Notes: generated by a model not told the origin, from the sequence alone. Shown: positions 4,474 through 19,654, counted from the first letter of the stretch. The stretch is DNA of 19,654 nucleotides from an uncultured Verrucomicrobiales bacterium (GCA_937922595.1 CALAIY010000139.1:1-19654), one strand, 5' to 3'. Translations and numbers: made by a program.

Positions 4474-4956
4474 CTATGGACGAGGATTGATTTCGGCGAC
4501 CATCATTGGGCTGCGGCGGATTTCGCCGGCTTCTCGTGTGAGGATAATTTCCCAGAGCTGGATGGAGCCAGGGGGCATTCGAGATGCGAGGGTATCGACA
4601 AGATGGTGAAGGGTGGCTTCTCCTGCTGGGCGTTTTTGCTCGGGGGTGAGTTTTTCTAGTGAGACGCCTGATGCTTTCTTGATGGCTTTGAGCTTTCCTT
4701 CGTAGACTTTTTTGAGGATGGACGTTCGCACTCCAAATTCGTGGTTTGCGGCGAGGGGGGTGCCTTCGGCATCTGCGACGTAGACGACGAATGGTCTTGG
4801 CGAGAACCCCGAATACATGGGGAATGACGAGAAGGGGAAGAATTCGGCTTGTTTGATTCTGTCGCGGCTGAAAGCGAGCCCGATGAAAAGTGGGTCGCGC
4901 TCTACGACTAGCAGTGAGAGCACGAGGGCGATCAGAAAGATCCAGAATCGTTTCAT
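4474..4956 (-). CDS. Hypothetical membrane-anchored protein with an N-terminal signal/anchor helix
   Basis: 160-aa ORF packed between the NUDIX gene (9 bp upstream) and the exonuclease gene (11 bp downstream) on the same strand. N-terminal hydrophobic segment MKRFWIFLIALVLSLLVV. I recognise no family motif. Confidence 0.55.
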   Translation of the reverse strand: MKRFWIFLIALVLSLLVVERDPLFIGLAFSRDRIKQAEFFPFSSFPMYSGFSPRPFVVYVADAEGTPLAANHEFGVRTSILKKVYEGKLKAIKKASGVSLEKLTPEQKRPAGEATLHHLVDTLASRMPPGSIQLWEIILTREAGEIRRSPMMVAEINPRP

Positions 4957-7667: not shown

Positions 7668-9041
7668 CTAGACGTTTTTGAGGACTCCCGTTGAGTCGCC
7701 GAAGCTGGTGGCCTTTACTCCGAATTCTTGGAGCATGCGGACGTAGAGATTGGTAAGGGGCTCGCCTTTGCCTAGATTTACGTGGCGTCCGGGAGTGAAT
7801 GCGCCTCCGGCGTGTCCTGCGAGGGTGATGGGGAGGTTTTTATTGGAGTGGCGGTTTCCATCGGAGATGCAGCCTCCGTAGACGACCATGGAATTGTGCA
7901 GGATGCTTTGTCCGTCGATGTCTTCGGTGTTTTCGAGTTGATTGAGGAAATAGGCGTATTGCTCCATGTAGAAGCGATCGATTTTCGCGATTTTTTCTAA
8001 GTTATCCGCTCGGTTTTTGTGGTGGGATAGGTTGTGGTGGCCTTCTGAAACTCCGATGTCCTTGAAGTGGCGGTTGTGCCCTTCGTGCTCGAGCATGAAG
8101 GTGGAGATTCGGGTGGAATCGGTCTTGAAGGCGAGAACCATCATGTCCATGAGGAGTCGGATGTGCTGTGTGTAGCTGGTGGGGCGTCCGTCTGGCGGGG
8201 CTGGGGCTCCGGGGTCTGGGGGGAGGCCGAGGGATTCGATGCGTTCGACTTGGAGTTCGATTTCGCGGACGCCGGTGAGATATTCGTCGATTTTATGTTG
8301 GTCGGCGCGTCCGAGATATTTGGTGAGGGCGCGGGCGTCTTGCTGGATGAAATCGAGCATGGATTTTTTTGAGGCGTAGCGCTGGCCTAGGCTGGATGCG
8401 CGCTCGGTCTTGTTGCCGGTGCCGAAGAGGCGTTCGAAGACGGCGCGGGGGTTTGCCTCTGGCGTCATGGGCTGGGTTTTGGAGCGCCAAGATAGGTTGA
8501 ATTGGTAGGCGCATGAGTAGCCGGAATCGCAGTGGCCGGATTTGCGCACGCCGGATGTGGTGAGCTCGAGTGAGGGGATGCGGGTGAGATCGCGGGCGGC
8601 TTCTGCTGCGATCTGATCTACGGAGATGCCGAGGCGGATGCCTGCGCCGGATGTTTTTTTGGCACGTTGGCCGGTGAGGAAGGTGGCGATTCCTCGGGCG
8701 TGGTGACCGGCACCATCACGGCCTGAGGTGGCATTGAGGTGCTCAAATCCGGAGAATACTTGGAGGTGATTCCGCATCTTTTGGATGGGCTCGAAGGTGG
8801 GGCCGAAGGTGAAGTCGGAGCCGGTGCCGGTGGGTTTCCAATTGGCGACGTTGACGCCATTTGGAATGTAGAGGTAGGCCATGCGCAGTGGCGCGCCGCT
8901 GGGTGTGGTGGCTACGAGTCTTGATCCTGAGGCTTTGGCAATGCTGGGATGGAAGGCTTCGAGGGCTGGAAGCCCCATGGAGACACCGAGGCCGCGAAGG
9001 AAGCTACGGCGGTTGAGCTTGGAGAAGTCTTGTTGAGCCAT
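7668..9041 (-). CDS. DUF1552-family protein (Tat-secreted; partner of DUF1592-type cytochrome-c-like proteins)
   Basis: Twin-arginine signal 'NRRSFLRGLGVSMGLPALEA'. Family hallmark 'HNLSHH' (HxxSHH) near the C-terminus. It lies 44 bp downstream of, and co-oriented with, the DUF1592-type gene, matching the conserved two-gene arrangement known in Planctomycetes/Verrucomicrobia. Confidence 0.75.
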   Translation of the reverse strand: MAQQDFSKLNRRSFLRGLGVSMGLPALEAFHPSIAKASGSRLVATTPSGAPLRMAYLYIPNGVNVANWKPTGTGSDFTFGPTFEPIQKMRNHLQVFSGFEHLNATSGRDGAGHHARGIATFLTGQRAKKTSGAGIRLGISVDQIAAEAARDLTRIPSLELTTSGVRKSGHCDSGYSCAYQFNLSWRSKTQPMTPEANPRAVFERLFGTGNKTERASSLGQRYASKKSMLDFIQQDARALTKYLGRADQHKIDEYLTGVREIELQVERIESLGLPPDPGAPAPPDGRPTSYTQHIRLLMDMMVLAFKTDSTRISTFMLEHEGHNRHFKDIGVSEGHHNLSHHKNRADNLEKIAKIDRFYMEQYAYFLNQLENTEDIDGQSILHNSMVVYGGCISDGNRHSNKNLPITLAGHAGGAFTPGRHVNLGKGEPLTNLYVRMLQEFGVKATSFGDSTGVLKNV

Positions 9042-9085
9042 GGTGGTTTAGTTTAGCATGTTTGTGGATTGGGGGCGAGTGGGGC

Positions 9086-11431
9086 TCAGTTGTTGTCGTT
9101 CCGGCGTTTTTGGAATGGGGCGCTTTCTGTGATGCTGTGGATGAGTTGGCGGAGATTTCCGTTGCTGGATTCTAGGCGGGCTACGAGTTGATCGATGGTG
9201 GTGGCATCGTAGTATTCGATTCCGCGGCCGATGGCGTAGGTGAGGAGTTTCTCGGAGAGGCAGCGGTAGAAGTCGCTGCGGCGTTCGGTGGCGAGGATTT
9301 TTTTAAGCTCGGCGGGACTGGAGAATTTTTCTCCGGTGATGAGTTCGCCGGCGGCGTCGATGGGGGCACCGGCTTCTTTTTCGCGGAATTGGCCGAGTGC
9401 ATTGAAGTTTTCGAGGCCGAGGCCGATGGGATCCATGCGGGCGTGGCAGGAGGCGCATTCGCGCTTCTTGCGGTGGATTTCCATCATTTGGCGCATTGTG
9501 GGTGTGGAGGTGTTGGTTTCGCTGGCGGCTTCTTCGAGTTCCGGGATGTCGGGTGGTGCGGGAGGGGGCGGGGTGCCGAGAAGATTTTCGAGGACGTAGA
9601 GTCCGCGCTTCACTGGTGATGTGCGGGTGGGATTGGAGCTTACGATAAGGTAGGAGCCGTGGGTGAGGACGCCGCCGCGTTCGGGGTGTTTACTAAGATC
9701 GACTTGGCGGAAGGAGTCCCCTGAGATGCCTTTGATTCCGTAGAATTCTGCGAGCCGGGAATTGAGGAATGAATAATCGGCGGAGATGAGCTCTTCGATT
9801 GGGCTTTCGGATTTGAGGAGATGCTCGAAGAGTAATTCCGTCTCGCGCTGCATGTCGTCCCGGAGGCGGACGTCGAATGCGAGTGAGGCTTCGCGCTTGG
9901 AATTGAGTCCAAGGATGGATTGCGGATTGACGGGCGCGGATTGGAGATTGTTTACTTGAAGCCACTGGCCGGTGAAGTCGGATGTCATGCGGGAGGCGCG
10001 TGAATCAGCGAGCATTCTTTCGACCTGGGCGGGGAGGTTTTTGCGGAGCTCTTTGTTGAAGGCGAGGCTTAGTAGCTCGTCATCGGGAATCGAGCGCCAG
10101 AGGAAAAATGAGAGTCGGGTGGCGAGGGCATATTCGTCGATGGGGAGGCTTTTTGCTCCGGGGGAGTTTTGGCCGTGCTGGAGTTCGATTCGGAAAAGGA
10201 ACCGGGGGGAGCAGAGGCAGGTGGCGATGGCTTCTTTGATCCCGTCTTTGAAGTTCTTACCAGGGCGGGCGTCGACTTCTTCGATGATGTGCAGGAGGCG
10301 GTCGATGGTTTGAGTGTCGAGAGGGCGGCGGAATGCGCGGCTGACGAAGCTCTTCATGATTTTTCTGGCGTAGCGCTTTCTTGCGGTGCTGTTTTTGGGG
10401 GCTTCGCCATCGACGAAGATCATGCGGTAGCCTTTTGCGTATTCTCGCTGATTGCCATCTAGGGGGCCTTTGAGGATGAGGCGCTGGATGACGAGTGATT
10501 GTTCTTCTTCTCCTTTTTCGGGTTCATCAAGGGGGGTGAGGGAGAGTTCGAAGGGTGATTTTCCTTTTTTGAGTTTTGTTTTCCCGATGAATTGAATCGT
10601 GTTTTGTGAATCCCAGGCGACGAGTTCTTTGCCGATGACATTGCTTCCGGCGAGGAGTGCAAATTCGGCAGATTGGGTGGTGGCATCGGTGGCACCTCGG
10701 ACGGCGTATTCGAGAATGACTTTGTATTCGCCGGGCCACTGGATTTCTGCGGTAGCTTGAATTTTCTGGGGGGTCTTAAAAGGGAGCCAGCTGCCTGAGA
10801 TTGATTCGTCCGAGGGGGATTTGAAATTGGTGCCATTGATGTCGATTCGGGGGACTTGCGCGGCAGCTCCGGAGGGGAGTGCGCGAGAGACGACAGTTTC
10901 CGCGGCGGCGATGTATTTCTCCATGAGGAGTGGCGAGATGGAGAGGACTTCGCCGATGGTATCGAAACCGTATCCTGTGTCGTCGGGAGGAAATACTTCT
11001 GTGGTATCGAATTCGACGCCGAGCAGGTCGTAGACTGCGTTGCTGTATTCGGTGCGGTTCAGCCGACGGATGATGACTTTACCTGGATCGGGATTTTTGG
11101 GGTCGAGCTTGAAGACGTCGCTCTGGATCCAGGAAAGGAGTGTTTTCCGATCTTTGGGAGTTAGAGGCTCGCCCTCGGATGGGGGCATGATCTGGCTTTG
11201 GACGTTGCGCCAGACAGCTGTCCAATGCTCGATGTCATTGAGGTGAGAGGCGAGGTCTTTGAATGTATCTGCGGAGAATTCGCCTTTGGCAGAGCCTTCG
11301 CCGTGACACTCGTAGCAGGCGTTTTCGAGGATTGGCAGGATTTCCTCGTGATAGCGGTTTTCGGCGGTCGCTGTTGCGAAACTTAGGAGTGTGGCGATGA
11401 ATGCCTTTGGAAGTGCTGCCGGAGAGATCAC
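9086..11431 (-). CDS. Planctomycete-type cytochrome-c-like 'PSD' protein (DUF1587/DUF1592/DUF1595/DUF1588/DUF1585 architecture) with two CxxCH motifs
   Basis: 781 aa with a signal peptide. N-terminal 'CYECHG' and C-terminal 'CASCHARMDPIGLGLENF' are CxxCH heme-binding-type motifs. Overall size and motif placement match the DUF1592-family proteins that pair with DUF1552. Confidence 0.75.
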   Translation of the reverse strand: MISPAALPKAFIATLLSFATATAENRYHEEILPILENACYECHGEGSAKGEFSADTFKDLASHLNDIEHWTAVWRNVQSQIMPPSEGEPLTPKDRKTLLSWIQSDVFKLDPKNPDPGKVIIRRLNRTEYSNAVYDLLGVEFDTTEVFPPDDTGYGFDTIGEVLSISPLLMEKYIAAAETVVSRALPSGAAAQVPRIDINGTNFKSPSDESISGSWLPFKTPQKIQATAEIQWPGEYKVILEYAVRGATDATTQSAEFALLAGSNVIGKELVAWDSQNTIQFIGKTKLKKGKSPFELSLTPLDEPEKGEEEQSLVIQRLILKGPLDGNQREYAKGYRMIFVDGEAPKNSTARKRYARKIMKSFVSRAFRRPLDTQTIDRLLHIIEEVDARPGKNFKDGIKEAIATCLCSPRFLFRIELQHGQNSPGAKSLPIDEYALATRLSFFLWRSIPDDELLSLAFNKELRKNLPAQVERMLADSRASRMTSDFTGQWLQVNNLQSAPVNPQSILGLNSKREASLAFDVRLRDDMQRETELLFEHLLKSESPIEELISADYSFLNSRLAEFYGIKGISGDSFRQVDLSKHPERGGVLTHGSYLIVSSNPTRTSPVKRGLYVLENLLGTPPPPAPPDIPELEEAASETNTSTPTMRQMMEIHRKKRECASCHARMDPIGLGLENFNALGQFREKEAGAPIDAAGELITGEKFSSPAELKKILATERRSDFYRCLSEKLLTYAIGRGIEYYDATTIDQLVARLESSNGNLRQLIHSITESAPFQKRRNDNN

Positions 11432-11461: not shown

Positions 11462-11504
11462 TCAAATGTGATTGATCGGGCTTCTGCCCGCACAGATCAT
11501 TTGA
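11462..11504. promoter_or_regulatory. Imperfect palindrome with a central GC hairpin (TCAAATG..TGATC-CGGGC-ttct-GCCCG-..GATCATTTGA) in the promoter region of the DUF1592/DUF1552 operon. It overlaps the stop codon of the HTH gene.
   Basis: Read directly: outer arms TCAAATG (11462-11468) and CATTTGA (11498-11504) are exact reverse complements. The inner CGGGC/GCCCG 5-bp stem (11477-11481, 11486-11490) has a 4-nt loop. The element lies 31-73 bp upstream of the ATG complement at 11431. On the plus strand it is followed by the T-rich 'TTGATTTTTGGGTTTG'. Confidence 0.35.
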
Positions 11505-11973
11505 TTTTTGGGTTTGTCTCTTTCATTGCTTGGAAATCGCCTTCTTCGCAGCAGCGGACGAAGCCTTCGGTGAAGGATTTGAGGTCGTCCCAGACTTCGC
11601 GGATGTCTTCGGATTCATCGTCTGTGATTTCGTTGTCGAGGGCTGCTTGGGTGATGGTGCTGAGGAGGCCGGCGAATTGTTTTACGATTTCGTTCGTTGA
11701 GGGGAGGACTTCGTGGCCTTCTTTGCAGCGACTTTTGGGGTTGCGAAGAAAGTAGCCGCCGGAGCGTTCGCAGAGCCATTTGATGATGAGGGGCTCTTGG
11801 GTGAGCTCGATCATTTTGGCTACTCGGTCGAGTGGGTTTCGGCTGCCGGAGCCCATTTCGGTGTTGGGCTGCGCCCATTTGTAGACTAGTGAAAGTGAGA
11901 CGCCAAGCTCGGCGCTGACCTCCTTCGGGCCACATTTTTTAAACGCTTCTCTAATGACTTCGTGGGATTCCAT
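11497..11973 (-). CDS. Small Cys-rich Cro/CII/YdaS-like helix-turn-helix DNA-binding protein (putative local regulator)
   Basis: 158 aa. The N-terminal HTH 'KEVSAELGVSLSLVYKWAQ' resembles the phage CII / YdaS-type pattern (LGVSxSxVSxW). The C-terminal half is acidic and holds five cysteines including a CC pair ('FVRCCEEGDF'). It is divergently transcribed from the flotillin-AAA cassette across a 104-bp spacer and is co-oriented with the downstream DUF1592/DUF1552 pair. Confidence 0.55.
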   Translation of the reverse strand: MESHEVIREAFKKCGPKEVSAELGVSLSLVYKWAQPNTEMGSGSRNPLDRVAKMIELTQEPLIIKWLCERSGGYFLRNPKSRCKEGHEVLPSTNEIVKQFAGLLSTITQAALDNEITDDESEDIREVWDDLKSFTEGFVRCCEEGDFQAMKETNPKIK

Positions 11974-12077
11974 CGTGGTAATATTGTAGCAGACGTTCGG
12001 TGGTTCGGGGGGATTGTAAAACAGCCTCTTTATTATACTTGGAACCAGATGCCTGTGCCGCTAGCATCGGTCACATT
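11974..12077. promoter_or_regulatory. Divergent promoter/operator region between the HTH regulator gene and the flotillin-AAA cassette
   Basis: 104-bp spacer between divergently oriented start codons, moderately AT-rich ('cctctttattatacttggaacc'). No consensus promoter can be read confidently. Confidence 0.35.
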
Positions 12078-14105
12078 ATGCTGCCAGTTGCTTTTCTTGA
12101 TTTGTTGTTGGGTTCTGTTTGGATCCTTGTCGCTATCGTTGCTTTTGTTCTTTTTGTCGTATTGGCCTGCGTCGCGGCGACGTTCTTCCGAAAAGTTCCT
12201 CAGGGAAAGGCGTTGGTGAAAACTGGTTTTGGAGGAGCTAAGGTCTCTTTCTCAGGGATGTTTGTGGTGCCTTTCGCTCACAAGCCGGAGATGATGGATA
12301 TTTCGGTGAAGAGGATCGAGATCGACAGAACCGGGCAAAATGGCCTGATTTGTAAGGACAATATGCGTGCAGATATCAAGGTGGCATTTTTTGTGCGCGT
12401 GAATCCGACTGAGGCGGATGTGCGGAAGGTCGCGCAATCGATTGGCTGTGCGCGTGCTTCCGATATTAAGGCAATTGAGGCGCTCTTTGATGCGAAATTT
12501 TCGGAGGCGCTCAAGACCGTTGGTAAGCGGTTTGATTTTTCGGAACTTTACGAAGAGCGCGATACCTTCCGCAATGAGATCATTAAACTCATTGGCACTG
12601 ACCTAAACGGTTTCTCCTTGGAGGATGCTGCAATCGATTACCTAGAGCAGACGCCGCTTAGTTCACTTGATCCAGACAATATTCTTGATTCTGAGGGTAT
12701 CAAAAAAATTACGGAGCTCACGGCGACTCAGGCAAAGCTCGCGAATAATATCCAGCGGGATAAAGAAAAGGTTATCAAGCAACAAGACGTGGAAGCTCGC
12801 GAGGCTATCTTGGAGCTTGAGCGTCAGCTCGCGGAGACTGAAGCGAAGCAGGCACGAGAAGTGGCGAACGTGCAGTCACGAGAGGAAGCGGAGACTAAGA
12901 AGGTTGCCGAAGAGAATCGCCAGCGTTCTGAGCAGGCGAGGATCGCCGCAGAAGAAGAGATTCAGATTTCCACGCAGAATCAGGAGCGCCAGGTGATCGT
13001 GGCGCAGCGAAATAAGGAGAAGACGGATGCCGTGGAGCAGGAGCGTGTGGAGCGTGAGCGCCAGCTTGAGCAGATCGAGCGGGAGCGGGTGACGACACTT
13101 AAATCAATTGAAAAGGAGAAGGCTGTAGAGATTCAGAAGAAGGAGATTCAGGACGTTATCAAGGAGCGCGTCGCGGTGGAGAAGACCGTCGTCATTGAGC
13201 AGGAGAAGATCAAAGATACGGAGGCGTTTGCGGGGGCAGATCGTGAGAAGCAGGTTGCGGTGACGCTTGCCGAGAAGGATGCGGAATCGACCTTGATTCG
13301 TAAAGTCCGCGAAGCTGAGGCGGACTTAAAGGCGGCACAATTTGATGCGGATGAAGAGGCATACAAAGTCACGGCTCGCGCCGAGGCTGCGAAGGGAGCT
13401 GCGGATAAGCGTGCTCAGGAAATCGTCATCCTTGCAGAGGCAGAGCAGGAAGCTGCGGAGAAAACGGCATCTGCACGGATGAAGCTTGCCGAGGCGGAGC
13501 GCGCTGAAGCGGCGGCGACTGGACTTGGACAGGCTGAGGTGCTTCGAGCCACTGCGGATGCTGAATCCGAAGGGATTGAGAAGAAGGCGGCAGCGATGAA
13601 GCTCTTTGAGGAAGCGGGGCAGGAGCACGAAGAATTCAAGCTCACTCTTGATAAAGAGAAGGCGGTGGAACTCGCCGAGATCGATGTTCAGCGCCTGGTC
13701 GCTGCTGAGCAATCGAAGGTGGTGGGCGAAGCCCTCAAGACTGCCAAGATTGATATCGTGGGTGGTGAATCTGAGTTCTTTGATCGTATTACCAAAGCTG
13801 TCACTTCCGGTAAGGTAGTGGATAGAATGGTCGATAATAGCGAGACGCTTTCGAACGTGCGCGATACCTTCTTCAATGGTGATCCCGAATACTTTAAGAC
13901 GCAGGTTCGCAGCTGGGCGGATCAATTTGGGATCAGCGCAGAAGAGATGCAGAATCTCACGGTGAGCGCTGTTCTTGGGAAGATGCTAGCGGGCGGGCCG
14001 GATGCCAAACAGGGCTCGGCGATTCGTGGGTTGCTGGCTGCTGCGGAGCGGTTTGGCTTTGCCAATGAAAACGCGGCGGCCGCCCTCAAGCAGCTCGAAA
14101 GCTAA
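12078..14105 (+). CDS. SPFH/Band-7 flotillin-like protein (YqiK/FloT-type) with N-terminal membrane anchor and an extended E/A/K/R-rich coiled coil
   Basis: The ORF is open from 12000, but I place the start at the ATG at 12078 (MLPVAFLDLLLGSVWILVAIVAFVLFVVLACVAA), immediately before the transmembrane helix as in YqiK/flotillins. The SPFH core reads 'KALVKTGFGGAKVSFSGMFVVPFAHKPEMMDISVKRIEI...ADIKVAFFVRVNPTEADVRKVAQSIG'. About 350 aa of heptad-like E/A/K/R-rich sequence follows (flotillin coiled-coil domain). At ~675 aa it is longer than typical bacterial YqiK. Confidence 0.85.
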   Translation: MLPVAFLDLLLGSVWILVAIVAFVLFVVLACVAATFFRKVPQGKALVKTGFGGAKVSFSGMFVVPFAHKPEMMDISVKRIEIDRTGQNGLICKDNMRADIKVAFFVRVNPTEADVRKVAQSIGCARASDIKAIEALFDAKFSEALKTVGKRFDFSELYEERDTFRNEIIKLIGTDLNGFSLEDAAIDYLEQTPLSSLDPDNILDSEGIKKITELTATQAKLANNIQRDKEKVIKQQDVEAREAILELERQLAETEAKQAREVANVQSREEAETKKVAEENRQRSEQARIAAEEEIQISTQNQERQVIVAQRNKEKTDAVEQERVERERQLEQIERERVTTLKSIEKEKAVEIQKKEIQDVIKERVAVEKTVVIEQEKIKDTEAFAGADREKQVAVTLAEKDAESTLIRKVREAEADLKAAQFDADEEAYKVTARAEAAKGAADKRAQEIVILAEAEQEAAEKTASARMKLAEAERAEAAATGLGQAEVLRATADAESEGIEKKAAAMKLFEEAGQEHEEFKLTLDKEKAVELAEIDVQRLVAAEQSKVVGEALKTAKIDIVGGESEFFDRITKAVTSGKVVDRMVDNSETLSNVRDTFFNGDPEYFKTQVRSWADQFGISAEEMQNLTVSAVLGKMLAGGPDAKQGSAIRGLLAAAERFGFANENAAAALKQLES

Positions 14106-14114
14106 GATCCTGCC

Positions 14115-17100
14115 GTGTCCAATGATGCACAGACCGCGATCGAGGGCGGTACCTATGAGGTGATTCGCGCGCGCCTCGCCGCTGCTGGCGAGGCGCTCGA
14201 GCAACGTATCGGCGCGCTCAATTCCGAGCGGCAGTCGATCTTTGGAGCGGTCGATTCTGCTCTTCTTACGACTGAGCGGATTACTACAGAGCATGCGTGC
14301 ACTCCGCGCGACATGACGGCGGTCGGTGGTGGGAAGTTCCTTTTCGGATATAATGTTCAGCTAGGATTGAAATCGACCACTGAGCTGGCGGATGTTTTTT
14401 CCGTCTACCGCTACGATAGTGAGGCAAATACGTTTCTCCCGGATGGGCTCGAAGGAGTGGATCTGGATCGCTTTGCGGAGGACTTTTCCTATCTTTATAA
14501 ATACTACCGTGAGACGAGTTTTGTAAAATTTCTCAAGCGTGGAGCACATCTTTATCTGGCTTTCCGTAGCGGAAAATCGGTCGATGATGTGAAGGCGTTT
14601 AAGTTTCTTCTTCCGGGTGATGGCACGGTCGAGTACTTGGGGAATCGTTTTGATCACGAGTATCTTTTTCCGCCGCAGCAGGAATTCGAATGGAAGCGGG
14701 CGCATCGGGATATGCACCGTGGAGGTGAGCATCCTCATATCTCGATTAATGATCGCGTCTTCGTTGAAACCGTCGGCGGGGATCTTACGGTAAAGGTCGA
14801 GGATAACACGGCTTCAGGCGGCGGAATTTATGCGGAACCGGTCGAGAATGTGGATCAGACGTTGGATGATGCCGAGATTCTTTACGCCGAGGTAGGCAGC
14901 TTGATCTTGCTGAAGATTCGTCCGTATCAGGAGGAGGCGTTTCGCTATCTTGTTTTTTGTGAGAAGACGAATGAGGTCTTTCGGGCGGATGCGATTGCGG
15001 ATTCGTGCGTGCTTCTTCCCGACGATCATGGAATTGTGGTGGCGAATGGATTTGTTCTTCAGACGGGGGAGGCGAAATTTTTCGATAGCGGTCTTGTAGA
15101 TATGCGCTTCGAGCGCCGCGTCGCTTCTTCGAACGGGGAGGATACGTTTTTCGTCTTCTATAATCGCGCTTCGGGAACTTATATTTTGCTCGCCTATAAT
15201 TTAATTGGCCAGAGTATTGAGACGCCGGTTGTATGTAATGGCTATAGTTTGTTTCCAGATGGGCGAATGCTCGTTTTCCGGACGGAAGATCAGCCGCAGA
15301 AGCATCATGCGGTGCAGATTTGGCAGACTCCATTTATGGAGGAGGACGGCTCTTCGTCGATCGAAGGGGCTTCTTATCTTGCTAAGATAGGAAATGCTGA
15401 AGTGGTGCGCTGCATGGCTGAGTGCCGGGAGGTGCTCAAGCTGATCGGGAAGGATGACACTTATGCCGATCTCTATATCGATCTCGTAAAGAAGACGCGA
15501 GATATCGTAGATAGCTATTTTTGGGTGGGGAGCGATGAGGCGCAAAATCTCCGAGAACCCTTGATGGGAGTGAATACGGCTGCTCAGGGGGCAATTGCAG
15601 AATTTGATAAGGTGCAGAAGCTACGCGCTGGGACGGCTGCTGAAACGGCTCGTGTGCAGGAGGTGGTGCGGAAGTTGCTCGCGCGTGTTGAGCACGAAGT
15701 TCCGGATGATATTCAGGGGTTTGTTCATGATCTTGCGGGGCTGCGAGGTGTTCGAGGAGAGGTGGTAGCGCTGCGCGATCGTCGGTATGTGGATCAGGAA
15801 TTGGTCAATACTCTCGAAGAGAGTGTGAAGGTGGCTACGGAAACGGCGTCGAATGGGTGTGTGCAGTTTCTCTTGGAGCCTCAAGCGCTTGATCCTTATC
15901 GCGCGGATGTGGGCGAGCAGGAGAAGGCGGCGGGAAAAATTGCTAAAGTTACCGAAGCGGAGGTGGTGGAGGAGGCGCTTGATGCTGCGGGTGAAGAGCT
16001 GGAGATGCTCATCGATGTGGTGGGTAATCTTAAGATTGAGGACACGACTGAGGCGACTGCGATTACTGAATCGATCTCGGATATTTACGCGGAGCTCAAT
16101 CGGGTGCGTGCGGGGGTGCGGCAGCAGAAGAAGGAGCTTAGCCGCGAGGAAGGTGCTGGGCAGTATCAGGCTCAGGTGCGGCTTCTCGGCCAGGCGGTGG
16201 CGAATTATCTTGAGCTTTGTGATACTCCGGAGCGCTGTGATGATTCACTGACGAAGGTGATGATTCAGCTTGAGGAGCTTGAGGGTAGGTTTGGTGAATT
16301 TGATGAATACGTTGCTGCTTTGGCGGAGAAACGTGAGGAGGTTTATGGGGCGTTTGAGACGCGTAAGCAGCAGCTTCTGGAGGCTCGCAATCGCCGGGCA
16401 GCGACTCTTGAGAAGAGTGCAATGCGTGTCCTTGATGGGATTGTGCGTCGGGTAGAGACGTTTTCGGAGCAGGCTGAGATTAATAGTTACTTCGCGGGCG
16501 ATCTGATGGTGGACAAGGTGCGTGATGTGATTGAAGAGCTTCGCGAGCTAGGGGATCCGGTGAAAGCGGATGGCATTCAGACGCGTCTGAAAACGCTTCG
16601 GGAAGATGCGGTGCGTCAGTTTATTGATCGTAAGGAACTCTACGAGGATGGAGGAAACGTGATCAAATTTGGGGATCATGCGTTTTCCGTAAATACCCGC
16701 GATCTGGAGCTTACTCTTGTGCCTCGCGATGAGGAGATGGCTTACCATCTTACGGGGACGGGTTTTTATGAGGAGGTGGCCGATGCGAAATTTCTCGAGA
16801 CGCGTGAGGTGTGGGATCAGGAATATGTCTCTGAGAGTCGGTGTGTCTACCGCGCTGAGTGGCTCGCGTATCAATGGCTTTTGAGTGCGCGGAATCTTTC
16901 TTTATCGGAATTTATGGCTGCTCGCTATGGCGAAGGCTATGTGAAAGGCGTTCATGATCGTGATGCACAGAAGATTATAGATGCGCTGATTCCAATTCGT
17001 GAGGCGGCAGGGCTCTTGGAATATTCGCCGGAGGTTCGGGCGGGAGCGATGGTTTTCTGGGCTGCTTGGGAGGATGAAGAAATGAAATCGCGGCACGCGG

Positions 17101-19037
17101 CAAGGTTACTCGCTGCGGGTGTCTCGCGGGAGGCGTTTGGCCATACGGGGGGCTTTGAGAGTGCGGTGGCTGAGCTGAGGGAGTATGCGGGAGAGGGCGC
17201 AGAATTTCTGGGTGAAGTGCTTGCTGCGGGAGGGAAGTTTCCAGCTTCTGCGGGGGCGGTGGCAGATTTAGAGGCGTTCCATAATGAACTTAAAAGTAAG
17301 CGGCTGGCGGTGAAGTTTAAGGAATCGATTGAGGCGATGGGGAGCAATGTGGAGGCGCGCTATGCGGTGCTTCTGGATTGGATGGGGAATTCAGTGGAAG
17401 CGGCTGCGGTGGAGCTTTGTGGAGGGCGGCTTGTTCATGATGTTCGCGAGGTGGAGACTGTGGTGGAGCTTACGGAGATGCTTGGTGATCATTCGATGAT
17501 CGAGGGAGGGCGTTACCAGCTCGATTACCATGAGTTCATGGCGCGCCTTGGGGACTATGCGGGGGAGCGGGTTCCGCTTTATGAGCGTTATCATACGTTG
17601 CGTAGTGAATTGGTGGAGGCGAAGCGCGAAGATCTGAGGCTTGCCAGCTTTAAGCCGCATGTGATGAGCGCTTTTGTCCGCAATCGTCTTCTTGATGAAG
17701 TCTATCTTCCGATGATTGGCGCGAACTTGGCGAAGCAGATTGGCGCGGTAGGTGCGGGGACTCGAACGGATCGGATGGGGCTTCTCCTTCTTGTGTCGCC
17801 GCCTGGCTACGGAAAAACGACGTTGATGGAATACGTGGCGAATCGGTTGGGGATCACGTTTGTAAAAATTAATGGGCCTGCGCTGGGGCATGATGTGACG
17901 TCGCTTGATCCGGTGGATGCTCCGAATGCGAGTGCTCGTGAGGAAGTGGAGCGGCTGAACCTATCGCTGGAGATGGGTGATAACGTCATGATCTACGTGG
18001 ATGATATCCAGCATTGTAACCCAGAGTTTCTTCAGAAATTCATTTCGTTGTGTGATGGGCAGCGGAAGATCGAGGGTGTGTGGGATGGGAAGGCTAAGAC
18101 TTATGATTTACGCGGAAAGAAGGTGGCGGTGGTGATGGCGGGAAATCCTTATACGGAGACGGGTGGAAAATTCCAGATTCCCGATATGTTGGCCAACCGT
18201 GCGGATACTTATAATCTGGGGGATATTATCGGAGAAAATAGTGGTGCTTTTGAATCAAGTTATCTGGAGAATTCGCTGACGAGTAATCCTGTGCTTTCAA
18301 AGCTTGCTGGTAAAGGCCAGGGGGATGTGCGGGCGATTTTGAAGATGGCAGCGGCTGCCGATGGCGCGGTGTCGGATGAGCTTGAAGGGAATTTTACGGC
18401 GGAGGAGGTGTCTGAGTTTATTTCGGTGGCACGGAAGCTTCTTCGTGTTCGTGATACGATCCTGCGGGTGAATCTGGAATATATTCGCTCGGCGGCGATG
18501 GAAGATAGCTACCGCACTGAGCCTGCTTTTAAGCTTCAGGGGAGCTACCGGAATATGAATCGGATTGCGGAGAAGGTGCTTCCGGTGATGACTGATGATG
18601 AGGTGGAGCGTCTCATTCATGATCACTACCGGGGGGAGAGCCAGACTCTTACGACGGGCGCTGAAGCGAATTTACTTAAGTTCTTCGAACTCGAAGGGGA
18701 GATGGCGTCCGAGCAGGCTGAGCGTTGGACGCAAATTAAGACGGAGTTTAATAAGCAGAAGCTTCTGGGAGGTGCTGGAGAGGATGATCCGGTGTCGCGT
18801 GTGGTGGCGCAAATGATGCAGTTTCAAGATGGGCTCAGAGATATTGCTGGCAAGATTGGTGGCTCGGAGCTGGCAGATTCTACTGTGGCGAAGCTGGAGA
18901 AGGTCATCGCTGGTCTGCGGGCGGTTCCGGTGGAGGTGGAGATCAAAGTGGTGCCGGTTGAGCCTGGTGAGACTTCGAGGAGCGCTCCGGGATTGCCGGT
19001 GGACGTGGAGTCTCGGACGACGCAGGGGATGGAGTGA
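14115..19037 (+). CDS. Giant (1640-aa) uncharacterised protein with a C-proximal MoxR/AAA_5-type AAA+ ATPase module; co-operonic partner of the flotillin gene
   Basis: GTG start 9 bp after the flotillin stop, and a single uninterrupted 4.9-kb ORF. Walker A 'SPPGYGKTT' (~aa 1229). Walker B plus the MoxR-type post-Walker-B helix 'MIYVDDIQHCNPEFLQKFISLCDGQRKIEGV' (cf. hhhhDEINRAxPxxQxALLEAMEE). Sensor 1 / Arg finger 'VVMAGNPYTETGGKFQIPDMLANRAD' (cf. MoxR 'ATQNPxE..G.Y.LPEA.LDRF'). The N-terminal ~1200 aa are a mixed beta-rich (aa ~60-410) then long alpha-helical region with no motif I can assign. There is no P-loop N-terminally and no vWA/MIDAS (DxSxS) motif anywhere. Confidence 0.8.
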   Translation: MSNDAQTAIEGGTYEVIRARLAAAGEALEQRIGALNSERQSIFGAVDSALLTTERITTEHACTPRDMTAVGGGKFLFGYNVQLGLKSTTELADVFSVYRYDSEANTFLPDGLEGVDLDRFAEDFSYLYKYYRETSFVKFLKRGAHLYLAFRSGKSVDDVKAFKFLLPGDGTVEYLGNRFDHEYLFPPQQEFEWKRAHRDMHRGGEHPHISINDRVFVETVGGDLTVKVEDNTASGGGIYAEPVENVDQTLDDAEILYAEVGSLILLKIRPYQEEAFRYLVFCEKTNEVFRADAIADSCVLLPDDHGIVVANGFVLQTGEAKFFDSGLVDMRFERRVASSNGEDTFFVFYNRASGTYILLAYNLIGQSIETPVVCNGYSLFPDGRMLVFRTEDQPQKHHAVQIWQTPFMEEDGSSSIEGASYLAKIGNAEVVRCMAECREVLKLIGKDDTYADLYIDLVKKTRDIVDSYFWVGSDEAQNLREPLMGVNTAAQGAIAEFDKVQKLRAGTAAETARVQEVVRKLLARVEHEVPDDIQGFVHDLAGLRGVRGEVVALRDRRYVDQELVNTLEESVKVATETASNGCVQFLLEPQALDPYRADVGEQEKAAGKIAKVTEAEVVEEALDAAGEELEMLIDVVGNLKIEDTTEATAITESISDIYAELNRVRAGVRQQKKELSREEGAGQYQAQVRLLGQAVANYLELCDTPERCDDSLTKVMIQLEELEGRFGEFDEYVAALAEKREEVYGAFETRKQQLLEARNRRAATLEKSAMRVLDGIVRRVETFSEQAEINSYFAGDLMVDKVRDVIEELRELGDPVKADGIQTRLKTLREDAVRQFIDRKELYEDGGNVIKFGDHAFSVNTRDLELTLVPRDEEMAYHLTGTGFYEEVADAKFLETREVWDQEYVSESRCVYRAEWLAYQWLLSARNLSLSEFMAARYGEGYVKGVHDRDAQKIIDALIPIREAAGLLEYSPEVRAGAMVFWAAWEDEEMKSRHAARLLAAGVSREAFGHTGGFESAVAELREYAGEGAEFLGEVLAAGGKFPASAGAVADLEAFHNELKSKRLAVKFKESIEAMGSNVEARYAVLLDWMGNSVEAAAVELCGGRLVHDVREVETVVELTEMLGDHSMIEGGRYQLDYHEFMARLGDYAGERVPLYERYHTLRSELVEAKREDLRLASFKPHVMSAFVRNRLLDEVYLPMIGANLAKQIGAVGAGTRTDRMGLLLLVSPPGYGKTTLMEYVANRLGITFVKINGPALGHDVTSLDPVDAPNASAREEVERLNLSLEMGDNVMIYVDDIQHCNPEFLQKFISLCDGQRKIEGVWDGKAKTYDLRGKKVAVVMAGNPYTETGGKFQIPDMLANRADTYNLGDIIGENSGAFESSYLENSLTSNPVLSKLAGKGQGDVRAILKMAAAADGAVSDELEGNFTAEEVSEFISVARKLLRVRDTILRVNLEYIRSAAMEDSYRTEPAFKLQGSYRNMNRIAEKVLPVMTDDEVERLIHDHYRGESQTLTTGAEANLLKFFELEGEMASEQAERWTQIKTEFNKQKLLGGAGEDDPVSRVVAQMMQFQDGLRDIAGKIGGSELADSTVAKLEKVIAGLRAVPVEVEIKVVPVEPGETSRSAPGLPVDVESRTTQGME

Positions 19038-19124: not shown

Positions 19125-19654
19125 ATGTTTTTGCAAAAACTGCTCCCCGTTGCCCTGCTTGCCATTCCGTCATTGGCGGTGTCTCAATCGATCGTGTTCA
19201 CCAATGCCATCATCGCTGATCAGGTGGCGGGGGCAAATGACGTCGCTGCGGGTGATTTCGATGGAGATGGACTGCTTGATGTTGTGGTGCTTGAATCGAA
19301 TGCTGACAATGTTTTGTGGCTTCGGAATCCAGGTGGAGATTTGAGCGGAGAATGGGTGGAGACGAGGATTAATTCAGCTTTTGGAAATGGTGCAAGTGTC
19401 GGTGTTGGGGATTTTGATGATGATGGTGATCTGGACGTTGCTGCCGCGTCGCCGGAAGATAATGATATCGCGTGGTTTGAAAATCCTGCTGGGACGGCTG
19501 CCGATTGGGAGGAACATATCCTTGACCCGGCTGCGATGGCAGTGAGTGACATTGAGGTTGTTGATATCGATGGAGATGGTGATTTGGACATCGTTGCCAC
19601 AGCGACTGGAGATAATGATGTGCTCCTTTTTCGGAATCCGGGGAGGGAGTTGGT
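19125..19654 (+). CDS. Secreted FG-GAP/VCBS-repeat protein (integrin-alpha-like beta-propeller repeats); 3' end lies beyond the window
   Basis: It is absent from the ORF track because no stop codon is reached, so I translated the frame by hand. ATG at 19125 gives 'MFLQKLLPVALLAIPSLAVSQS' (signal peptide), then repeated 'GDFDGDGLLDVVV', 'GDFDDDGDLDVAAA', 'VDIDGDGDLDIVAT' Ca-binding FG-GAP/VCBS units separated by 'NPGG/NPAG' segments. The minus-strand ORF 19220-19600 is its antisense shadow. Confidence 0.75.
   Translation, partial: MFLQKLLPVALLAIPSLAVSQSIVFTNAIIADQVAGANDVAAGDFDGDGLLDVVVLESNADNVLWLRNPGGDLSGEWVETRINSAFGNGASVGVGDFDDDGDLDVAAASPEDNDIAWFENPAGTAADWEEHILDPAAMAVSDIEVVDIDGDGDLDIVATATGDNDVLLFRNPGREL

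Follow-up and report, generated by a model that had tools for sequence, protein, structure and literature searches.

The E. coli yqiJK and B. subtilis yuaFG (floT) loci are NfeD-flotillin operons, the former with no third gene past yqiK in strain K-12, where sibD/ibsD comes next. At membranes, SPFH proteins assemble into attached cages in which AAA+ machines are housed or by which they are regulated, as in the case of HflK/C with FtsH and of prohibitin with m-AAA. MoxR ATPases remodel partner complexes; CbbQ, NorQ and RavA are proteins of ~250-500 aa that function with a vWA/MIDAS adaptor. Using comparative genomics, Ravi et al. (mSystems 2024; PMC11237479) reported a longer operon of the CesT-PspA envelope-stress type, in which CesT/Tir, PspA, YqiJ/YuaF and flotillin are joined by a 'novel AAA+ ATPase with beta-propeller and coiled coil', the prototype being the neighborhood of Dokdonia donghaensis ANH61663.1. 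Abbreviated operons devoid of PspA were also accepted by these authors. Their treatment occupies one paragraph that covers neither function nor Pfam families, motifs or the frequency of synteny, and our literature, full-text and broader searches recovered no functional study of the giant ATPase and no experimental datum for any member.

The DNA analyzed here, 19,654 nucleotides from an uncultured Verrucomicrobiales bacterium (hereafter, the window), contains an added member of this known, uncharacterized module. A gene for a CII-like regulator (11497-11973, minus strand) is followed by a flotillin gene ending with its stop at 14105 and, after 9 bp, by a gene for a giant protein of 1640 aa (14115-19037, plus strand), and the preliminary description had placed all three genes correctly. 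It also held that the arrangement fits no known module, a view superseded by the operon of Ravi et al. (PMC11237479), the gene string of which is exactly reproduced in Flavobacteriia by loci retrieved with the protein of the window. The window differs from that operon in the absence of CesT, PspA and YqiJ, none of which has a homologue in its 19.6 kb, and in the replacement of the XRE-S24 gene by the CII-like regulator.

The flotillin and the giant protein form a conserved pair. When the giant was used as a seed, an orthologous flotillin was found upstream on the same strand in 61 of the 64 genome loci with room upstream of the giant; when the flotillin was the seed, the giant was located downstream in 61/63 metagenome loci. 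Thus, the adjacency is far above chance and not incidental. The cassette suggested in the preliminary description is therefore borne out from both genes, and homologues of the giant are not scattered without flotillin neighbors, the exceptions being three genome loci with no flotillin inside 6.5 kb. Identity matrices of the two proteins are correlated as well (r 0.79; Mantel 0/999). Paired loci were found in Verrucomicrobiota, Planctomycetota, Kiritimatiellota, Omnitrophota, Desulfobacterota, Bacteroidota and Bacillota, and a plasmid collection added Actinomycetota, Deinococcota and Pseudomonadota, so that the unit is present in at least 10 phyla. By contrast, the 9-bp gap and the GTG start of the second gene, previously taken for a signature of obligate coupling, are not conserved among relatives: the spacer varies from an overlap up to 2.3 kb and frequently contains unrelated selfish genes.

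In most loci the pair is preceded by a third gene. A YqiJ-like gene is found directly upstream of the flotillin in 55/58 genome loci and 67/73 metagenome loci, including the two closest relatives of the window. In the relatives, homology of this upstream gene to YqiJ is seen at E 1e-5, together with weak matches to the YqiJ_N and NfeD Pfam families. Thus, the system is a canonical yqiJK-type operon plus a third gene, and the ancestral unit of the family consists of three genes encoding YqiJ/NfeD-like, flotillin and giant proteins. The window copy is a reduced form that has lost the YqiJ-like gene: a tblastn search with 55 YqiJ-like proteins gave a best E of 0.025 in the window, and only 104 bp separate the regulator from the flotillin. 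The earlier claim that no NfeD/YqiJ partner is present thus applies to the window and not to the family. Deprived of this partner, the window copy may have a different mode of action or be in decay, although its two remaining ORFs are intact.

Further neighbors depend on the lineage. Across 160 loci, the recurrent ones are PspA, CesT, YqiJ and polyamine genes. The order XRE-S24 (opposite strand), CesT, PspA, YqiJ, flotillin and giant was observed in 15 Bacteroidota genome loci, and plasmid pQBR103 carries YjfI, PspA and, farther along, glutathionylspermidine synthase, a hypothetical gene, SPFH and the giant. PspA is encoded in 28/80 flotillin-seeded metagenome loci. It adjoins the module only in Bacteroidota and some Proteobacteria and does so neither in the window nor in other PVC loci; the CesT/Tir-PspA dyad is absent from all PVC loci examined.

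The mechanical ORF of the flotillin extends over positions 12000-14105, with GTG at 12000. Translation likely starts at ATG 12078, since a conserved promoter-like motif occupies positions 12014-12037 and the hydrophobic segment is where orthologues start. The resulting YqiK-type protein of 675 aa (12078-14105, plus strand) was recognized by its Band_7 match and alignment with YqiK, and its previous reading as a membrane-anchored SPFH/flotillin is confirmed by the order of hydrophobic segment, SPFH domain and coiled coil. The N-terminal hydrophobic segment, a predicted membrane anchor (aa 1-36; 12078-12185, plus strand), has Kyte-Doolittle values of 1.6-2.3 in 19-residue windows across aa 1-42. 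It is followed by the SPFH/Band_7 domain (aa 39-182; 12192-12623, plus strand), located in the best-conserved part of the orthologue alignment; PF01145 reached 46.8 bits (cut-off 23.6; E 4.6e-12) when the N-terminal 274 aa were scanned alone, the full-length Pfam scan giving no match. The next region (aa 221-520; 12738-13637, plus strand) is rich in Glu (20%), Ala (18%) and Lys (10%) and aligns with the coiled coil of YqiK. The sequence identity of the flotillin is 29% with E. coli YqiK across the anchor, SPFH domain and coiled coil (aa 7-495; E 9e-50), 43% with a Streptomyces 'flotillin family protein' and 36-66%, over the full length, with the flotillins paired with the giant in 68 loci. The C-terminus differs from that of YqiK. 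No Flot domain (PF15975) was found at E<=1 in the last 196 aa of the flotillin or in its Streptomyces and pQBR103 orthologues, whereas YqiK, the positive control, matched with E 2.4e-42. Judging from the conservation in 63 orthologues, this subfamily carries its own C-terminal block instead (aa 496-585, ...HEEFKL...IVGG..FF...; 13563-13832, plus strand).

The giant starts with GTG at 14115, and its first methionine aligns with the start of all homologues. More than 4800 homologues were found at E<=1e-10, and the protein could be aligned over its full length to 120 of them with 54-64% identity and 97-100% coverage. The architecture is stable in the family: DUF3686 is always N-terminal and the proteins are ~1600-1930 aa long. 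The ~1200 aa preceding the AAA+ module, in which no assignable motif had been recognized earlier, in fact correspond to Pfam families. PF12458 (DUF3686) matches aa 28-469 over profile positions 2-448 of 448, with 593.7 bits against a cut-off of 25 (E 2.3e-178). This region (14196-15521, plus strand) comprises an N-terminal helix, a beta-propeller and helices; strands at aa 49-404 in the AF2 secondary structure make up approximately seven blades by strand count, and Foldseek searches returned beta-propellers throughout, namely, WD40, Sec12, PON1 and the prolyl-oligopeptidase propeller. PF25472 (DUF7902; aa 590-674; 15882-16136, plus strand; 90.6 bits, E 7e-26) lies within ~280 aa of successive long helices (aa ~560-840), with AF2 helices at model residues 2-283, equivalent to aa 561-842 of the giant. 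The AF2 models have pLDDT values of 87 and 82. Hydropathy analysis revealed no TM-like segment in the giant. By their Pfam matches, the N-terminal 1200 aa belong to named but uncharacterized families, and with only DUFs devoid of an established function in this part, the cassette idea is left standing.

The single AAA+ module was correctly located in the preliminary description at aa ~1190-1400 (17682-18314, plus strand) and assigned to the AAA_5 type; Pfam AAA (33.5 bits) and AAA_5 (26.2 bits) both exceed their cut-offs. Its fold is MoxR/dynein-like with a pre-sensor-1 beta-hairpin, and the nearest folds are those of the MoxR remodelers CbbQ and NorQ, as well as dynein and midasin. The nucleotide-binding motifs are all conserved: across 75 sequences from many phyla, conservation is >=95% for Walker A (SPPGYGKTT, aa 1228-1236; 17796-17822, plus strand) and for the Y.DDIQH signature of Walker B (VMIYVDDIQH, aa 1291-1300; 17985-18014, plus strand), and Walker B was invariant in two other comparisons. 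Walker B contains Asp-Asp rather than the usual Asp-Glu of the canonical hhhhDE pattern throughout the family, suggesting that ATP hydrolysis may be slow or switch-like, not motor-like. The loop following strand beta2 is without an aromatic residue, which disfavors classical substrate threading. RuvB was considered as an identity for the module and rejected: the scores were 23.9 and 21.7 bits against equivalog cut-offs of 282 and 299, with a match of only 46-48 residues around Walker A. Unlike the much shorter MoxR ATPases, the giant possesses a 1200-aa propeller and helical extension and the Asp-Asp Walker B, and the helix-2 beta-hairpin is absent from its AF2 secondary structure. It also has no vWA partner, as noted before: no vWA/MIDAS protein was found in the window or among annotated recurrent neighbor clusters.

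The divergent regulator (158 aa; 11497-11973, minus strand) is an HTH protein and a candidate for the P2/186 CP76 type. PHROG 101 (E 1e-10), annotated as 'CII-like transcriptional activator', matches its aa 4-128, in agreement with the earlier designation as CII-like; Pfam Phage_CP76 (PF06892) scored 24.4 bits, just below the cut-off of 26, and a profile search revealed no solved homologue in the PDB. The regulator is lineage-restricted, with orthologues in the same divergent position in 6/80 genome loci (L004, L005, L014, L021, L025 and L085), all of Verrucomicrobiota or Kiritimatiellota, whereas Bacteroidota loci have an XRE-S24 repressor in its place. An alignment of the regulator-operon intergenic regions of the window, L004, L005 and L014 yielded the motif TTGTAAAA-N10-ATTATA (12014-12037, plus strand), which occurs once in the window versus 0.01 expected and is also present as the exact pattern in L025, a locus left out of the motif derivation. 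We consider it a putative promoter/operator.

A function can be proposed from what was observed: the genes present, their domain architecture, a pair conserved reciprocally, a repeated association with PspA and CesT and a giant free of TM segments. The reading we prefer, with about an even chance of being correct, is that of a flotillin-docked protein-remodeling ATPase acting on membrane-associated assemblies during envelope stress; the oligomeric state, physical docking, substrate and stress role are our propositions. The flotillin would be anchored through its N-terminal hydrophobic segment at the cytoplasmic face of the inner membrane and, through its coiled coil, would build a large oligomeric scaffold, as in other SPFH proteins. 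The soluble giant may oligomerize via its MoxR/dynein-like AAA+ module, while its N-terminal propeller, carried on long helical arms, would dock on this scaffold, probably contacting the subfamily-specific C-terminal block of the flotillin or scaffold-bound clients. With ATP turnover, membrane-associated assemblies (flotillin itself, PspA-type polymers or both) could then be remodeled, built or taken apart in response to envelope stress or for membrane maintenance. In a more specific and tentative version, which we hold to be possible though doubtful, the DUF3686 giant would be a dedicated ATP-driven remodeler of flotillin and/or PspA (ESCRT-III-like) assemblies, an SPFH-docked counterpart of Vps4 or of dynein/midasin-type pullers.

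A related possibility is that the giant is a bacterial Vps4 counterpart proper, which disassembles or recycles PspA/ESCRT-III-type polymers, with flotillin only as a membrane platform joining both. The immediate upstream position of CesT-PspA in the 15 Bacteroidota loci argues for it, as does PspA in 28 of the 80 metagenome loci and on pQBR103. Moreover, a Vps4-like ATPase appears to be missing from bacteria according to a 2025 review (PMC7619361), and Ravi et al. consider that abbreviated operons may act with PspA encoded elsewhere (PMC11237479). We nevertheless regard this reading as unlikely.

Quite unlikely, too, is membrane protein quality control in the manner of HflK/C-FtsH, whereby damaged membrane proteins would be confined by a flotillin cage and extracted or unfolded by the AAA+ enzyme for proteases encoded elsewhere. 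HflK/C-FtsH and prohibitin-m-AAA resemble the present pair in combining, both genetically and functionally, an SPFH-family membrane scaffold with an AAA+ enzyme, a precedent described, for example, in PMC12048511; the S. aureus FloA-NfeD stabilizes unfolded proteins, as cited in PMC13086221; and the soluble giant has a large propeller that may bind substrates. However, FtsH is membrane-embedded and contains a protease domain, whereas the giant is protease-free, with an association with flotillin that is presumed, and no recurrent protease is found among the neighbors. HflK/C faces the periplasm, while the window's flotillin belongs to the YqiK type, which faces the cytoplasm. The pore-loop region lacking an aromatic residue and the Asp-Asp Walker B also speak against extraction.

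An anti-phage or abortive-infection system at the membrane, a role on which the preliminary description had speculated, is improbable. Phage-type regulators (CII-like here, CI/LexA-like XRE-S24 in Bacteroidota), copies on megaplasmids and the link to PspA, which recalls 'phage shock', would be in line with defense. However, none of the three proteins had a significant match in PADLOC-DB v2, the two marginal ones being to LmuB (E 2e-4, coiled coil) and IetA (E 6e-4, a 29-residue P-loop), no copies were found in 50,697 phage records or IMG/VR, the window neighbors are housekeeping genes, the recurrent neighbors in the 160 loci are not defense genes, and the family shows stable inheritance, low copy number and uniform architecture. 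Least credible, and very improbable, is a DNA repair or DNA-translocating ATPase with a purely regulatory flotillin neighborhood, as implied by the database labels (NCBI 'DNA repair ATPase', Pfam 'ATPase involved in DNA repair'), the RuvB-like Walker A region, RuvB among the top Foldseek matches and the LexA-like S24 repressor flanking the operon in Bacteroidota: nothing links the module to phage defense or DNA repair, and the label is unsupported.

The window's own addition is minor, being a variant with loss of the YqiJ-like gene and a CII-like regulator. What is new for the family is the quantification of the flotillin-giant coupling, mentioned in passing in the literature, and the definition of conserved catalytic motifs of the giant. 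A subfamily of flotillins is almost never without one specific 180-kDa AAA+ protein in at least 10 phyla, often right behind PspA. Since the role of bacterial flotillins is still debated and no ATPase controlling PspA/ESCRT-III-type polymers is known in bacteria, the module provides a concrete handle on both questions, and genetically tractable carriers exist in Proteus, Vibrio, pQBR103, Streptomyces and flavobacteria. If the proposed function is true, the giant would be the first defined enzymatic partner of flotillins in bacteria, and the gap described as 'no Vps4 in bacteria' would be closed.

The flotillin-giant pairing is real and is observed in both search directions. In the genome scan seeded with the giant protein, 80 loci were recovered, and an orthologous flotillin lies upstream on the same strand in 61 of the 64 loci with upstream room. 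The paired flotillins are ~700 aa long and share 36-66% identity over their full length. Conversely, the flotillin-seeded metagenome scan yielded 80 further loci, with the giant gene present in 61 of the 63 that have at least 1.2 kb downstream. These counts bear out the cassette proposed in the preliminary description. The identity matrices of the two proteins are correlated (r 0.79, Mantel 0/999). Carriers are also found in a plasmid collection (Streptomyces, Nonomuraea, Deinococcus, Pseudomonas pQBR103, Proteus, Vibrio, Photobacterium and Halomonas), with gene order unchanged wherever annotated. The exceptions in the genome scan are three loci, L036, L045 and L051, which have no flotillin within 6.5 kb upstream. 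Nearby genes are DNA methyltransferase-like in L051 and small and toxin-antitoxin-like in L036, possibly a sign of relocated copies.

In the window, all three genes first noted were recovered in the six-frame ORF list: the CII-like regulator (11497-11973, - strand, 158 aa), the flotillin (+ strand, ending at 14105) and the giant (14115-19037, + strand, 1640 aa, GTG start), separated from the flotillin by 9 bp. Read mechanically, the flotillin ORF begins at GTG 12000. Its start is probably ATG 12078, giving 675 aa, because orthologues start at the hydrophobic segment and because a conserved motif at 12014-12037 would otherwise be intragenic. The remaining window genes are housekeeping (LeuA-like synthase, lactonase, phosphodiesterase, exonuclease, NUDIX protein, prolyl oligopeptidase and a DUF1552/PSD pair), and neither a tRNA nor an Rfam match was found in the window. 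At 7668-11431 (- strand), the DUF1552 (HXXSHH) gene adjoins a multi-domain PSD/PSCyt protein (DUF1587, 1592, 1595, 1588 and 1585 plus a cytochrome c domain), an uncharacterised pair typical of the Planctomycetota-Verrucomicrobiota group. Two ORFs on the - strand, 4474-4956 (160 aa, with a hydrophobic segment at the N-terminus) and 19220-19600 (126 aa), lack Pfam matches. Strand composition of the window is extremely asymmetric, with an overall GC skew of +0.29; at third codon positions the + strand has a skew of +0.35 to +0.79, whichever strand holds the gene, and T exceeds A too. The median |skew| of 85 related loci is 0.06; a value near that of the window is reached only in Rubritalea spongiae (L038, 0.26).

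The 9-bp gap and GTG start had been taken as a signature of obligate coupling. This reading does not hold, since the flotillin-giant spacer in relatives ranges from an overlap up to 2.3 kb. No conserved small gene occurs in the spacer, which contains solely heterogeneous selfish inserts and in which selfish genes have landed repeatedly. The variable, insert-bearing spacer indicates that the junction in the window is not a conserved coupling device. The inserts include PDDEXK_3 (GxxExxY) nucleases, RayT/IS200-like transposases, a ParE-like toxin-antitoxin pair and DUF559-like endonucleases. The PDDEXK_3 nucleases occupy the spacer of five Verrucomicrobiota loci; spacer inserts lie at L001 7489-7941, L007 7505-7927, L012 7505-7921, L031 2233-2658 and L013 73-498, and further selfish inserts are found in L002, L037, L062, L009, L050 and L052.

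Most relatives encode a third component. Immediately 5' of the flotillin, 55 of 58 genome loci and 67 of 73 metagenome loci, including the two closest relatives of the window, encode a YqiJ-like membrane protein (weak Pfam YqiJ_N/NfeD matches; E 1e-5 against YqiJ of E. coli). This gene is absent throughout the window. Thus, the earlier remark that an NfeD/YqiJ partner is missing is correct for the window but not for the family. Sister loci have the order CII-like regulator (- strand), YqiJ, flotillin and giant, versus regulator (- strand), flotillin and giant in the window, where the intergenic motif is kept; this comparison points to a recent and clean loss of yqiJ. This conserved motif, TTRYAAAA-N10-ATTRTA, lies between the regulator and the operon; it is shared by the window (12014-12037) and relatives (L004 4877-4900, L005 5007-5030, L014 5020-5043 and L025 5045-5068), and the window retains it despite the apparent loss of the first operon gene. 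It is possibly a promoter or operator. Scans of the window for sigma-70 and terminator consensus sequences gave results not above shuffled sequence. The regulator matches PHROG 101, 'CII-like transcriptional activator' (E 1e-10), and scores slightly below threshold against Pfam Phage_CP76.

The flotillin has a hydrophobic anchor of 36 residues followed by a coiled coil rich in E, A and K. A scan of just the N-terminal fragment detects Band_7/SPFH (E 4.6e-12). Full-length Pfam and NCBIfam scans and a phmmer search of the PDB returned no matches; the empty full-length scans are explained by coiled-coil bias. Over aa 7-495 the protein shares 29% identity with YqiK of E. coli. Unlike YqiK, which served as a control (E 2e-42), it shows no match to the Pfam Flot domain in its C-terminal ~180 aa. 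Instead, a C-terminal block (aa 496-585), with the residues HEEFKL...IVGG..FF, is conserved across 63 orthologues.

The N-terminal ~1200 aa of the giant, previously regarded as unassignable, hold two named families, PF12458 DUF3686 (aa 28-469, E 2e-178) and PF25472 DUF7902 (aa 590-674, Pfam). Pfam AAA and AAA_5, each over its cut-off, cover aa 1224-1347, and the ATPase is MoxR-like, as initially proposed. No TM-like segment was found in the protein. AF2 models (pLDDT 87 over aa 1-600 and 82 over aa 560-1640) predict that an N-terminal helix precedes a beta-propeller with about seven blades (aa 49-404), which is followed by ~430 aa of long helices, a small beta unit and a weakly conserved helical region; next comes the AAA+ core, which bears a pre-sensor-1 beta-hairpin, and then a lid and C-terminal helices. 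Five motifs are conserved in at least 95% of 75 family members from many phyla: Walker A (SPPGYGKTT), Walker B (Y.DDIQH), MAGNPYTE with the sensor-1 Asn, PDML.NRAD as a candidate arginine finger and QGSYR as a candidate sensor-2. Walker B is thus Asp-Asp rather than Asp-Glu family-wide. One homologue, P0100, is labelled 'phage shock protein A' by JGI; this label was rejected, PspA_IM30 similarity being absent from the helical region and from P0100 itself.

The membrane-anchored YqiK-type flotillin and the soluble giant, with its propeller, helical arms and MoxR-like ATPase, are inherited together as one unit, which is repeatedly embedded in PspA envelope-stress operons. In 15 Bacteroidota loci the module lies downstream of CesT-PspA with a divergent XRE-S24 repressor, and in pQBR103 a YjfI-PspA-...-glutathionylspermidine synthase block precedes it. 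On its flanks the module has polyamine/YjfL-type genes (L047 7036-7629, L029 13730-15415, L078 7811-9385 and L081 1-5122): DUF4178, DUF350 and a TM-fused spermine synthase downstream in some Bacteroidota loci, and DUF2491, DUF350, DUF1190 and glutathionylspermidine synthase upstream in pQBR103. These flanking genes correspond to the second class of PspA-associated operons in Ravi et al. (mSystems 2024, PMC11237479). The same study described exactly this operon in Dokdonia, noted abbreviated forms and proposed a chaperone-like role in membrane-associated assembly, so the pairing, first noted as fitting no characterised module known to the reader, has already been reported computationally. No functional study was found in the full-text literature on DUF3686/PF12458, flotillin/SPFH-linked 'DNA repair ATPase' or YqiK with AAA+, in agreement with the view of the cassette as uncharacterised.

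We propose that the flotillin would form an oligomeric scaffold facing the cytoplasm, while the giant would oligomerise via its AAA+ ring and dock through its propeller, possibly onto the subfamily-specific C-terminal block of the flotillin. During membrane stress, ATP turnover may then remodel flotillin and/or PspA-type assemblies. A rival explanation is that the giant is a Vps4-like recycler of PspA; according to a 2025 review (PMC7619361), a Vps4-like ATPase is apparently absent from bacteria. In another, the giant is a quality-control extractor. The Asp-Asp Walker B, together with a pore-loop region free of aromatic residues, speaks against a motor that threads rapidly. Phage defence, one of the roles initially considered, has essentially no support, since searches of phage genomes and viral contigs found no copy of the giant and its neighbours in the window are housekeeping genes. 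The same is true of the DNA repair function implied by the NCBI label, which is backed only by a resemblance to RuvB confined to the P-loop level. The window thus carries a reduced form of a module that is known in kind and experimentally untouched, the significance of which would be considerably higher if the role in remodelling flotillin or PspA assemblies were demonstrated.
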